Positions 25,024 to 28,236 of a stretch of DNA of 64,000 nucleotides are shown piece after piece. The stretch comes from an uncultured archaeon. Lineage in GTDB: Archaea; Micrarchaeota; Micrarchaeia; Micrarchaeales; CABMGC01. Where the stretch lies: assembly GCA_963752955.1 (NCBI GenBank), contig CAVWAD010000007.1, forward strand, positions 64,386 to 128,385, read 5' to 3'. The position numbers and the translations under genes are program-made. A model generated the notes under the pieces. It saw only the letters and a program-made list of their open reading frames with translations. It was not told the DNA's origin and made no database searches. Numbering within the stretch: the stretch's first letter is position 1; each line of letters starts with the position of its first letter.

Positions 25024-25854
25024 TTGGCTCTCTCCGAAAGGCTGGTGTTCGCGCTTCTCATCATGACCTCCATGGCGCTGGTGCTGTTCACCCTCCTCTT
25101 CACCTACTCGACCGCGGCGAAGTTCGCGCTCGTGGCGGCCGCGCTGGCGCTCGACGTCCTGGCGTTCTCTACCAAGTACTACTTCCAGTTCTTCCTGCCA
25201 TTCAGCAGGATGAAGGGCAGGACCGTGCTCCTCAACGGCGGGGAGGCGTTCACGATGGCCCCGTCCGGGAACGCGATCGTGGTGAGGAGCGGGCAGGACA
25301 CCTACGCGAGCGCCATCGTGAAGATACCGTCGTACAGGTCCGCCACCGAGATGAGCGCCGAGGAGAGGACCGACTTCACGCAGAAGTTCAGCAGGGCGAT
25401 GAGCCTCGCGAGGAACCCGGTGAAGTTCGCCGCGCAACTCTACGTGATAGACAAGGACAGGTACATAGCAAACATAAAGGGCAAGCTCGACGAGGCGGAG
25501 GAGAAGTACCAGGGCACGACCGTGAACAAGAGCGTCTCGAAGTCCGAGTCCGAGAGGATAAGGGGGGAGGTGACGATGTGGCACAACCTCTTCGACAGCG
25601 TGAGCAGGACCAGGTCGCAGTCGCTCGAGGCCTACGCGATGGTGACCTCGCCGGGAAGCACGGAGGAGGAGGCGATCAACCTGGCCCTGCAGCAGGCGGA
25701 CGAGATCGCCACCGGGATGAGCGCGATCTTCGGCATAGGGGCCAGCATAGCGGAGGGCGCCGAGATGCTGAAGTTCCTCGAGCCCGACTACATGATACCG
25801 GTCGTAACGATAAGCGAGCAGATGCGCGAGAAGACCGTCGCGAGGGAGGCTTAG
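25024..25854 (+). CDS. 2-TM membrane protein with cytoplasmic alpha/beta plus coiled-coil domain (paralog A)
   Basis: 276 aa. An N-terminal hydrophobic hairpin, then an about 200-aa soluble domain. Same architecture and size as the next gene. The start codon is uncertain (TTG 25024). Confidence 0.6.
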   Translation: MALSERLVFALLIMTSMALVLFTLLFTYSTAAKFALVAAALALDVLAFSTKYYFQFFLPFSRMKGRTVLLNGGEAFTMAPSGNAIVVRSGQDTYASAIVKIPSYRSATEMSAEERTDFTQKFSRAMSLARNPVKFAAQLYVIDKDRYIANIKGKLDEAEEKYQGTTVNKSVSKSESERIRGEVTMWHNLFDSVSRTRSQSLEAYAMVTSPGSTEEEAINLALQQADEIATGMSAIFGIGASIAEGAEMLKFLEPDYMIPVVTISEQMREKTVAREA

Positions 25855-25862
25855 GTGAGGCA

Positions 25863-26687
25863 ATGGATGAAAAAACGATGGTGTACCTCGTCTTCTCCTG
25901 CTCGGTGGCCATGCTCGTGCTGTTCGGCACCGCGTTCTACGGCCCGTTCGGCGCGCCGGCCGCGATACTTGCGCTGCTGACGATCGTCGCGATATTCGTG
26001 ATAAACTACGCGGACTTCCTCGTGTTCCCGCTCATAACGAACGCCCTCGGGATAAGGATGGTCCCGGCGAAGAACTACTACATACCGAAGGAGAACAACT
26101 GCATAGTCAAGTACATCAACGGCCTGTACTACGCCACGGGGTACCTCACGGCCAACATATACAACTACGTCTTCGAGGCGGAGGGCGTGCAGGAGGGGGA
26201 GGAGGCGAAGCTCGCGGAGGGGCCCGAGAGGTGGGAGAGGATAGTGATGAACGCCGGCTTCCCGTTCAAGTACAACATAATCGCCTCGGCGCAGGACGTC
26301 CAGAAGTACAGGGACGAGCTGGAGGGCAAGCGCGGGGTCTTCGAGTTCCAGCTCTCGCACGAGATGAGCAGCCAGTCCCCGAGCCAGATGACCATAGACG
26401 ACCTGCAGAAGAAGATGAGCATACTCGACGCGAGGATCAACAGGCTCTCCGGCGGCGAGAGGCCGGTGAACTCTATAATGTACGTGGAGACCACGGCCGT
26501 CGGGGTGAGCGAGAAGGAGGCGGCGGACGCGCTGACGAACCAGCTCAACCACCTGCAGACGCTCTTCAGCTCATTCGACCTCGGGATAATGAGGGTCGTG
26601 GGGAGGGAGATGTACCACCTCTTCACATTCGGCTACGTCATCCCCGACGAGGACACGCTCACTCAGGTCTTCAGCATGCAGAGGTAG
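25863..26687 (+). CDS. 2-TM membrane protein with cytoplasmic domain (paralog B)
   Basis: 274 aa from ATG 25863 (MDEKTMVYLVF..). N-terminal TM hairpin plus a soluble domain with a coiled-coil segment. The ORF-track extension to 25578 overlaps the previous gene and looks spurious. Confidence 0.65.
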   Translation: MDEKTMVYLVFSCSVAMLVLFGTAFYGPFGAPAAILALLTIVAIFVINYADFLVFPLITNALGIRMVPAKNYYIPKENNCIVKYINGLYYATGYLTANIYNYVFEAEGVQEGEEAKLAEGPERWERIVMNAGFPFKYNIIASAQDVQKYRDELEGKRGVFEFQLSHEMSSQSPSQMTIDDLQKKMSILDARINRLSGGERPVNSIMYVETTAVGVSEKEAADALTNQLNHLQTLFSSFDLGIMRVVGREMYHLFTFGYVIPDEDTLTQVFSMQR

Positions 26688-26728
26688 CGGCGGAACAGGA
26701 TATAAGCTTATATTGGGATTGTTGAACC

Positions 26729-28236
26729 ATGGCGCTCGTGAAGATCCAGAACGTAATGAGCAACGAGCTAGCGAAGAGGACCATCTTCAGCAGGCCTCCG
26801 GAGCCGCCGCAGGAGTACCTGCTCAACGACCCGACGAACTCCATATTCATAGGCATAACCAAGCTCTTCGGCGTGCCCTTCACCTGGTCGTTCGCGAACC
26901 TGACCAACCCGCACATCGCGGTCGTGGGAATAACCGGCGCGGGAAAGAGCTTCTTCGTCAAGACCTTCCTCACCAGGGCCAGCTACGTCTGGAACACCAA
27001 CGCCATAATAATAGACTGGGCCGGGGAGTACAAGGCGTGGGTGAAGCAGAGCGGCGGCATAATCGTCTCGCTCGGAAAGGGCGACTACCTCAACATAATG
27101 GACCTCTCGGGCATGAAGCCGCTCGACAGGTCCAAGCAGATACATGACGTCGCTGGAGATACTCACGGACATAAGCGAGTACCCAGAGCAGAAGAGGCTG
27201 ACCGTCGAGGCGATAGAGCAGGCGTACGTGAACGCCGGCTTCAACCTCGCGGAGATCCCCCCGACGGGTAAGGACGCGCCGACGCTGAAGGACGTCATAA
27301 GCCTCCTCGAGGAGAAGCTGCAGGAGGGCACGTACCAGTACCCCGCCGAGCTGGAGAACGCCGTCTACAGGCTCAGGCAGTTCGCGCGGGAGGGCGAGGA
27401 CTACTTCGCAAGGAAGAGCACGCTCGACCTCGGCAAGCTCATACACGTCGGGCCTGGTCGACATCGACCTCTCGAGCCTGCCGGACGAGAGGTTCAGGGC
27501 GCTCGCCGCGCTGTTCATACTGCAGACGCTGAAGGAGAAGATGAGGATGGAGGGATGGAGCGCGACGAAGGGCCTGAAGGCGCTGGTCGTGCTCGACGAG
27601 GCGTGGAAGGTCGCCAGCGACGAGAGGAGCGACGCCGTCACGATAGTCAGGGAGGGGAGGAAGTACCAGTTCGGGCTCATAGTCGCGTCCCAGAACCCCA
27701 CGGACATAAACGAGGCGATATTCTCGAACGTCGGCACGACCATAATGCTCAGGATAAAGTTCGAGAAGTTCCTCAACTACCTGCAGGGCTCGCTCAACTT
27801 CTCGGACTTCATGAGGAAGGAGATAAGCAAGTTCGGCGTCGGCCAGGCCGCCGTGGACATGTCCTTCCAGACGTCCGTGCAGTTCCCGGAGGTCTTCCTC
27901 CTCGACAAGATAGTAGGCGAGATACCCCTCGACGTGTACACCATAACGCTGGCCGACGTGCTGAGCCAGGCCGAGCTGGAGGACCCGAACGTGCAGAAGG
28001 AGTACTACCTGGAGAGGATAGACCTGAACTCCAGGTTCATACAGGCGAACATAAACTCCGTGGCGATAGAGAACGTCTTCAAGGAGCTCGATACGAGGGG
28101 CAGGACCCTGGACGTCAGGGGCCTGATGCAGGTGATGATCAACGAGAAGGTCGGCAAGGACACGATCGTGCAGCTCCTCAGGGGATTCGGGCTCTCCGAC
28201 GCGACGGTGACGAAGGCCTTCGGCTACATCACCTGA
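26729..28236 (+). pseudogene. FtsK/HerA/VirB4-class P-loop ATPase with two apparent +1 frameshifts
   Basis: Walker A VVGITGAGKSFF (about 26925-26950). Walker B LVVLDEAWKV. REGRKYQFGLIVASQNPTDI is typical of HerA/VirB4/TrbE ATPases. The reading frame changes near 27125-27160 and 27441-27456, so three ORF-track pieces (26729.., 27144.., 27541..28236) join into about 500 aa. Confidence 0.75.

Follow-up and report, generated by a model that had tools for sequence, protein, structure and literature searches.

The window analysed here is a stretch of 64,000 nucleotides from an archaeon of the Micrarchaeota (assembly GCA_963752955.1, contig CAVWAD010000007.1, positions 64,386 to 128,385, forward strand). 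It contains an operon encoding six polytopic membrane paralogs, two small proteins with a transmembrane (TM) hairpin, named A and B, and an ATPase of the HerA/VirB4 superfamily. The best-supported explanation of the hairpin proteins and the ATPase, and on balance a probable one, is that they represent a split VirB4, the motor protein of type IV secretion systems (T4SS). The ATPase would be the counterpart of the VirB4 C-terminal motor domain, and each hairpin protein would give a VirB3-like membrane anchor together with a domain resembling part of the VirB4 N-terminal domain. The ATPase gene is disrupted twice in the deposited sequence; both disruptions are very probably assembly artefacts, and the real gene would be intact. 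The three genes are located as follows:

25024..25854 (start possibly 25042), + strand: hairpin protein A, 276 amino acids (aa), TM hairpin and an alpha/beta soluble domain of ~200 aa.
25866..26687, + strand: hairpin protein B, 273 aa (274 aa if the start is 25863), paralog of A.
26729..28236, + strand: ATPase of the HerA/VirB4 superfamily, 501 aa after removal of two bases; three frames as written.

The Walker A motif of the ATPase (GITGAGKS) occupies residues 67-74, the Walker B motif (VVLDEAW) and the motif REGRKY...ASQNP are encoded by the third frame segment, and no TM segment was predicted. More than 1100 relatives with E < 1e-5 were found in the database. The 120 best of them are 72-92% identical to the window protein, nearly all have a length of 499-508 aa with a few partial sequences down to 484 aa, and they sit on contigs of up to 853 kb. 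The Pfam search revealed the DUF87, AAA_10 and TraG P-loop families. The best NCBIfam matches were CedD (72.8 bits, cut-off 600), CedB (65.4 bits, cut-off 700), VirB4-like and HerA models; none came near its cut-off, and the matches fell on the C-terminal ATPase parts of the models (CedD, CedB, TraC, VirB4). The cut-offs of the VirB4 models (TIGR00929 VirB4_CagE, NF045971 and related) were not reached (43.8 bits vs 643, 61.9 vs 325), and the HerA equivalog models gave 58 vs 800 and 52 vs 970.

Profile comparison was more specific. The family alignment of the ATPase, including three distant members, was compared using hhalign with an alignment of 22 TrwK-like VirB4 sequences, and residues 47-338 aligned with residues 421-702 of R388 TrwK (probability 97.5%, E 7e-12). 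The VirB4 C-terminal domain from the PDB (4ag5) aligned with residues 56-331. The N-terminal domain of TrwK comprises residues 15-400 (PMC9259494); since residue 47 of the ATPase corresponds to TrwK residue 421, the protein starts almost exactly where the C-terminal domain of VirB4 starts. No Pfam match to a VirB4-type N-terminal domain of ~400 aa (CagE_TrbE_VirB) was found on the ATPase chain, which has ~60 aa before Walker A. An earlier reading made from the letters of the window alone (the sequence-only reading) had described exactly this, an ATPase with about 60 residues before Walker A and without the VirB4 N-terminal domain, and the start of the TrwK alignment at residue 421 bears it out. 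Judged by these alignments, the ATPase is homologous to the C-terminal domain of VirB4 only. On present evidence it works like a VirB4/CedBD motor, yet it falls outside the VirB4, CedB, CedD and HerA families as their models delimit them.

Hairpin protein A has hydrophobic helices at residues 7-25 and 32-50 ahead of a soluble region of ~220 aa; in hairpin protein B they lie at residues 6-24 and 28-46, again ahead of a soluble region. The search for homologs yielded 111 sequences for A (228-297 aa, plus one fragment of 152 aa) and 249 for B. Given these numbers and the more than 1100 relatives of the ATPase, the features of the three proteins are not a product of chance. A direct BLASTP comparison of A with B gave an E-value of 0.002, and profile-profile alignment of the two families using hhalign gave a probability of 91% and E 1e-6 over 229 collinear columns; by this comparison, A and B are true paralogs. 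The sequence-only reading had noted two 2-TM proteins (276 and 274 aa) ahead of the ATPase and had called them paralogs by their architecture, and the relationship now extends beyond architecture. The proteins were also modeled with AlphaFold2 on the family alignments (pLDDT, the predicted local distance difference test score, was 78 for B and 75 for A), and both models have the same order of strands and long helices past the hairpin.

The models were compared with 350,542 PDB chains using Foldseek. For the A model, ranks 1-8 went to chains from entries of the R388 complex with TrwK/VirB4 (probability 0.84-1.00, E-values from 2e-3 to 3e-2), and for the B model, TrwK/VirB4 occupied ranks 1-4 (probability 0.96-0.98, E 0.08-0.14). 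Below these, only unrelated proteins with low probability were listed for either protein. The RMSD relative to TrwK was 6-21 A and the query-normalised TM-score was at most 0.35; the tool does not report which part of TrwK was matched. The VirB4-like structural neighbourhood predicted by the models is consistent, and it was obtained independently for both paralogs, but it is not strong.

The association of the hairpin proteins with the ATPase was then assessed in other genomes. In all six loci with enough flanking sequence (L001, L002, L005, L087, L088 and the contig of P0003), a gene of the hairpin family lies directly 5' of a gene for a DUF87/AAA_10 ATPase of 367-517 aa, and in L005 and L088 the two open reading frames (ORFs) overlap by 4 nt. 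Three of the six loci belong to other lineages, with GC (guanine and cytosine) contents of 39%, 51% and 27%. The hairpin gene occurs twice in Micrarchaeota and once in the distant clusters. Co-conservation of the 2-TM proteins with the ATPase, on which the sequence-only reading had made its proposal depend, was accordingly present in each locus. In the distant clusters, the ATPase gene is followed by a gene for a soluble protein of 210-251 aa (L005 5388-6020, L087 11217-11972, L088 11790-12479), which contains a coiled coil and a C-terminal end resembling a winged helix. This gene is missing from the Micrarchaeota cluster, where the ATPase gene is succeeded by a tRNA-editing gene on the opposite strand.

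In the window, every gene between 17619 and 28236 is on the + strand, and neighbouring genes are separated by no more than ~40 nt or overlap slightly. The order is polytopic genes g2-g7 (six paralogs of 338-502 aa), hairpin A, hairpin B and the cytoplasmic ATPase, and it was matched in two related contigs and in L002, the assembly that is nearly identical to the window. These genes form one tightly packed + strand operon, the synteny of which is kept in the related contigs examined. Where a source name is given for the 120 best ATPase relatives, it is mostly Micrarchaeota; in two cases it is bacterial, probably through mis-binning. The window, with a GC content of ~60%, is a part of a chromosome of Micrarchaeota (DPANN archaea). 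A mobile element was ruled out by the conserved chromosomal synteny, including the adjoining glnA and tRNA-editing genes, and by the absence of a GC anomaly. Upstream of the hairpin genes, the following features were found:

13904..14290, + strand: candidate VirB2-like pilin, 128 aa, by architecture only; its membership in the system is uncertain.
16759..17604, + strand: g1, membrane protein with six predicted TM segments, 281 aa; membership uncertain.
17619..18890, + strand: g2, polytopic membrane paralog, 423 aa, orthologous to L001 740-1954.
18899..20084, + strand: g3, polytopic paralog, 395 aa once repaired; a single G inserted at 19358 breaks the frame.
20077..21585, + strand: g4, polytopic paralog, 502 aa (tblastn, TM prediction, shared motif).
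21593..22876, + strand: g5, polytopic paralog, 427 aa, with a Cys-rich variable loop (tblastn, TM prediction, shared motif).
22873..23889, + strand: g6, polytopic paralog, 338 aa (tblastn, TM prediction, shared motif).
23899..24981, + strand: g7, polytopic paralog, 360 aa (tblastn, TM prediction, shared motif).

The proteins g2-g7 share one layout: a signal peptide and a TM pair precede a variable loop that faces outward, and a conserved core (LRxFxFTRxxGGxxIAxGI..YP) and a TM segment at the C-terminus follow. The g1 protein does not contain the motif common to the other polytopic genes; its gene is syntenic with the first gene of L001. The profile of the polytopic family matched a 343-aa protein of L005 (probability 98%, E 1.3e-13), and in L087 the family was recognised by its motif. 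In L005, the polytopic gene is preceded by a gene whose 120-aa product has a signal peptide and two helices. The scores of this product were just below the cut-offs for both Pfam T4SS_pilin (E 1.5e-5, 25.4 bits, cut-off 26.6) and TrbC/VirB2 (E 4.9e-5, 23.9 bits, cut-off 27.9). The gene order of L005 is therefore pilin-like protein, polytopic protein, hairpin protein with the anchor and N-terminal-like domain, and ATPase, which follows the logic of the archaeal Ced and Ted systems. The similarity of the N-terminal region of the polytopic family to the pilin-like protein of L005 (probability 7.8%) is only suggestive.

The pilin candidate of the window is nested in a longer ORF (13873-14424) and has a signal-peptide-like N-terminus and two hydrophobic helices. 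It is located 2.5 kb upstream of the cluster, past a MoxR-type AAA gene, and shows no BLASTP similarity to the pilin-like protein of L005. The Pfam and NCBIfam scan of the cluster genes revealed no VirB5, B7, B8, B9, B10, B11, VirD4 or relaxase, and the flanking genes scanned in the same way contained no relaxase or VirD4 either; a relaxase and VirD4 are likewise missing from the Ced and Ted systems.

Taken as a split VirB4, the proteins would act as follows. The hairpin proteins would jointly tether the ATPase oligomer to the membrane beside a channel, so that A, B and the ATPase would assemble physically and complement each other in trans. The channel would be made of the polytopic paralogs, which would correspond to VirB6/CedA by position. 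Together, these parts would make up a T4SS-derived translocation apparatus, in the manner of the archaeal Ced/Ted DNA-exchange systems, and DNA or some other cargo that is exchanged with the host could be its substrate. A more far-reaching version is possible and no more than tentative: a chromosomally fixed T4SS-derived nanomachine of Micrarchaeota and, more distantly, of other archaea with small low-GC or mid-GC genomes, with a three-polypeptide VirB4 motor and six VirB6-like paralogs with variable outward loops, serving as a conduit through which the symbiont and its Thermoplasmatales host exchange DNA or other cargo.

A number of results weigh against the split-VirB4 explanation, most of them at the sequence level. 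The VirB4 N-terminal family of Pfam (PF03135) was not matched by any of the 51 and 55 members of the A and B families, for which sporadic coiled-coil or ACT matches, taken as noise, were all that appeared at E-values up to 10, and the window copies of A and B gave nothing with Pfam and NCBIfam. Profile searches of the PDB sequences with A and B were empty, and comparison of both families with the 22-sequence VirB4 alignment using hhalign resulted in a probability of <1%. The best local stretch, which is not significant, pairs B 206-231 with TrwK 270-296, inside the N-terminal domain, and is a hint at most. The E-values of the Foldseek matches are marginal (2e-3 to 0.14), and the soluble domain of A and B (~200 aa) is short compared with the TrwK N-terminal domain (~385 aa). 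A fused form was also sought in an exhaustive profile search of 1.84 billion representatives; a fusion of hairpin and ATPase was found in 0 of the 128 hits, which represent the hairpin family at 50% identity. Fragments and three unrelated or chimeric longer hits aside, members of this family are ~235-283 aa long; the single 833-aa hit is a coiled-coil repeat protein and a 366-aa hit is a chimera with a polytopic paralog. The polytopic family showed no similarity to TrwI/VirB6, to Pfam families (including TrbL) or to PDB sequences, and the match of the window pilin candidate to Pfam TrbC/VirB2 was not significant (E=2). Finally, the ATPase scores about equally against HerA, CedB/CedD and VirB4 models in NCBIfam, PDB and PADLOC. 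The proposal of the sequence-only reading that the 2-TM proteins supply the VirB4 N-terminal module in trans has consequently held in part. Its structural side, with TrwK/VirB4 at the top of both Foldseek lists, and the adjacency to the ATPase agree with it; on the side of sequence, no similarity was found with Pfam, PDB sequences or hhalign.

The same data leave room for a membrane complex of the HerA type without any relation to T4SS, in which a short motor of the HerA/FtsK superfamily would work with lineage-specific hairpin adaptors, the likeness to VirB4 would be convergent or generic alpha/beta packing, and the polytopic paralogs would serve the envelope or transport in some other way. 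We consider this explanation unlikely. In its favour are the missing sequence similarity of the hairpin proteins to the VirB4 N-terminal domain and of the polytopic proteins to VirB6, and the marginal structural E-values. In addition, the PDB sequence matches with the best E-values are HerA proteins, and the HerA models of PADLOC and NCBIfam score about like the VirB4 models. However, the HerA matches are local (~residues 240-400), whereas the VirB4 profile and 4ag5 cover the core from residues 47-56 on. Of the HerA domains, only the central one (DUF87) was matched, and since the chain has only ~60 aa ahead of Walker A, there is no room for the N-terminal barrel domain of HerA. VirB4 heads the PDB ranking of both models, which were built independently; the homologous L005 cluster contains a gene for a VirB2/T4SS pilin with scores near the threshold; and the best NCBIfam matches, CedD and CedB, belong to a T4SS-derived system. 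A defence system was ruled out, as PADLOC gave only generic HerA, DndH and mad8 P-loop matches to the ATPase and none for the partner proteins.

Comparison with known systems indicated that the closest precedent of a split-VirB4 motor in the window is CedB/CedD, the ATPase pair of the Ced system for DNA import in archaea. Each of these two proteins of Sulfolobales combines TM helices and a HerA/VirB4-like ATPase domain with a domain that can be superposed on a different part of the VirB4 N-terminal domain; the pair was proposed as a replacement of VirB4 in a system without VirB3 or VirB8, and the two work with polytopic CedA/CedE and the VirB2-like pilin CedA1 (PMC11868833). Both systems are archaeal, have no separate VirB3 or VirB8 proteins and, under the proposed reading of the window, would be alike in their T4SS origin and in parting the VirB4-like N-terminal domain between two paralogous TM-anchored modules; CedD and CedB are also the best NCBIfam matches of the window ATPase. 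In contrast, each N-terminal module of Ced is fused to its own ATPase domain in two proteins, whereas the window encodes three polypeptides, namely two TM and N-terminal-like modules without an ATPase and one ATPase without an N-terminal domain. The window ATPase also scores far under the CedB and CedD cut-offs (65 vs 700 and 73 vs 600 bits), the window contains six polytopic paralogs rather than one or two, and its lineage is DPANN rather than Thermoproteota.

In the R388 system, the two-TM hairpin of VirB3 is wrapped about VirB4's N-terminal domain (PDB 7O41, 8RTB; PMC9259494). This topology of VirB3 hairpin plus VirB4 N-terminal domain resembles the hairpin followed by an N-terminal-like domain in A and B. 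The window ATPase is homologous to the C-terminal domain of TrwK, and the TrwK chains of the TrwM-TrwK (VirB3-VirB4) complex are the best PDB structural neighbours of both hairpin proteins. However, VirB4 of R388 is one chain of ~800 aa, whereas the window parts are encoded by separate genes, and the N-terminal-like part is duplicated, has about half the size and lacks sequence similarity.

The Ted system of Thermoproteales consists of TedA (VirB6-like), TedB (VirB4-like) and TedC (VirB2-like) (PMC9905601). It is a chromosomal archaeal system with a minimal set of pilin, polytopic channel and VirB4-like ATPase, and the minimal L005 cluster follows the same logic. The differences are that TedB was described as a VirB4/CedB-like ATPase without a reported split and that no family of hairpin proteins was described for Ted (PMC9905601). 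In Patescibacteria (Candidate Phyla Radiation, CPR) epibionts, a conserved chromosomal VirB4-centred system without relaxase was proposed to be co-opted for host interaction (PMC12102498). It is likewise a chromosomal system of ultrasmall episymbionts; the parallel with Micrarchaeota is an ecological analogy only, as the system is bacterial and contains a full-length VirB4 of the MPF-FATA class. The HerA helicases of DNA repair and anti-phage defence share with the window ATPase the central P-loop domain matching DUF87, but the window protein lacks their N-terminal barrel domain, and the scan of the neighbouring genes showed no nuclease partner such as NurA or Sir2; for the partner proteins, no PADLOC model was matched. 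The giant proteins of nanohaloarchaea with VirB4-like domains have a different architecture. A description of the window cluster was not found in the literature on T4SS, VirB4, VirB6 or HerA of Micrarchaeota and DPANN archaea, the coverage of which was incomplete.

As deposited, the ATPase gene is read in three frames, namely frame 2 (26729-~27142), frame 0 (27144-~27449) and frame 1 (27451-28236), which corresponds to two +1 shifts. The gene was compared with its ortholog from L001 (89% nucleotide identity) and with L002 (ENA ERZ25039471 contig_10304), an independent assembly of almost the same organism that is 99.58% identical to the window over 16.9 kb. The alignment with L001 revealed exactly two single-base insertions in the window:

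27144, + strand: extra base 1, A (or C at 27143), context ATAC[A]TGACG; absent in L001 and L002.
27444..27445, + strand: extra base 2, C or A, context ATA[C]ACGTCG; absent in L001 and L002.

When one base is removed at each site, a 501-aa ORF without an internal stop is obtained. The window insertions at 19358, 27144 and 27444 are missing from the assembly L002, whose ATPase gene is interrupted by three +1 insertions of its own (window positions 26791, 27257 and 27637). Elsewhere L002 contains two further insertions and one 4-base deletion, and one of these indels splits a large DnaJ-domain gene that is intact in the window. In turn, the window is broken outside the ATPase gene. The gene of the CDC48/VCP AAA ATPase (36147-38415, + strand) is spread over three frames, with two single-base insertions (~37656 and ~37911) relative to L001, and CDC48 is a normally essential gene; g3 is read by tblastn in frame 2 and then in frame 3, the G at 19358 being the base missing from L002. 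Changed codons of the ATPase gene are mostly synonymous, with 36 synonymous and 15 non-synonymous relative to L002 and 99 and 43 relative to L001. Synonymous changes prevail in all three frame segments in the comparison with L001, and in the first and third segments in that with L002, for which the middle segment gives 8 to 8.

Since the ATPase gene of L002 has its breaks at three other positions and none at the two window sites, the breaks were not inherited. Being neither inherited nor conserved, and showing no decay, they are therefore best explained as consensus errors of error-prone assemblies. Of what the sequence-only reading had claimed here, the position of the two +1 shifts (about 27125-27160 and about 27441-27456) agrees with the insertions found at 27144 and 27444/5. 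Its view that the disruptions are not long-standing decay is upheld by the synonymous excess, the intact relatives and the clean sites in L002. Its remark that every catalytic motif is preserved is true but undemanding, since the middle segment (residues 139-239) holds none.

A real, recent inactivation of the ATPase, i.e. a young pseudogene in this strain whose apparatus is being lost, appears improbable. The extra bases are present in the deposited sequence, the protein collection contains no intact ATPase with 100% identity (the best match is 92% identical), and the gene is likewise broken in the sister assembly L002. Yet the breaks of L002 lie at three other positions, with both window sites clean, and each assembly also breaks other genes: similar single-base insertions disrupt the essential CDC48 and g3 in the window, and L002 disrupts other genes that are whole in the window. 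Most changed codons downstream of the shifts are synonymous, and the ATPase, with its 72-92% amino-acid identity among the best 120 relatives, is one of the most conserved genes of the lineage. Programmed +1 ribosomal frameshifting, which would yield a full-length ATPase from the sequence as written, has a practically negligible probability. Both shifts are +1 and both lie just past an ATA codon in similar contexts (ATAC-A-TGACGTCG and ATAC-A-CGTCG). However, the sites are missing from the 99.6%-identical L002 and from every other relative, which excludes this reading; L001 and all 120 listed proteins are encoded in one frame, with neither site conserved. Moreover, a slippery re-pairing motif is absent at both sites and the other +1 insertions of the window (19358, ~37656, ~37911) do not have this context.

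The substitutions between the window and L002 are distributed unevenly. Of the 61 substitutions, 55 are located within 26755-27855, i.e. in the first 1.1 kb of the ATPase gene, and are mostly synonymous; this dense tract coincides with the indel errors of both assemblies. The pattern of substitutions suggests a strain-variant or recombination tract in which reads of two alleles were mixed, which may be a local cause of the errors. Single-base insertions are scattered over this assembly, and apparent pseudogenes in it should therefore not be read as biology.

If A, B and the ATPase do form a VirB4-like motor, the cluster would amount to a VirB4 naturally separated into modules for the anchor, the N-terminal and the C-terminal part. 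It would then extend the finding made with CedB and CedD that the VirB4 N-terminal domain can be partitioned in archaea, and would provide a tractable system for asking what role this domain plays. Judging by the amino-acid identity of the ATPase given above, the cluster ranks among the best-conserved loci of Micrarchaeota, and it is a concrete candidate for the host-contact machinery of these obligate episymbionts.

Several other features of the window were recorded. A cobalamin riboswitch aptamer (RF00174) was found above the gathering score at 34369-34501 on the - strand (33.5 bits), as well as in L002 (15428-15560, - strand, 33.5 bits) and L001 (16941-17079, - strand, 39.8 bits). It is located in a conserved intergenic block directly upstream of a large minus-strand gene (31114-33954), orthologs of which contain Pfam B12-binding and DnaJ domains. 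A cobalamin riboswitch would be unusual in an archaeon. Between glnA and the DnaJ-domain gene, at 30401-31035 on the - strand, a gene pair with a toxin-antitoxin-like layout was found (130 aa and 80 aa, 1-nt overlap); it is present in the window and L002 and absent from this place in L001.

In the region 60074-62338 (+ strand), the match of ORF 60690-61646 to the Pfam T2SSE profile (pilus/archaellum ATPase, 370 positions) is confined to profile positions 74-261, and the ORF is flanked by overlapping ORFs in other frames, followed by a T2SSF gene at 62352-63419; further frameshift errors may be present around 60074-62338. The gene at 4424-7243 (+ strand) encodes a 939-aa protein, possibly a surface adhesin of the symbiont, in which six divergent InlB B-repeat (Flg_new_2) domains are combined with a C-terminal domain rich in glycine.

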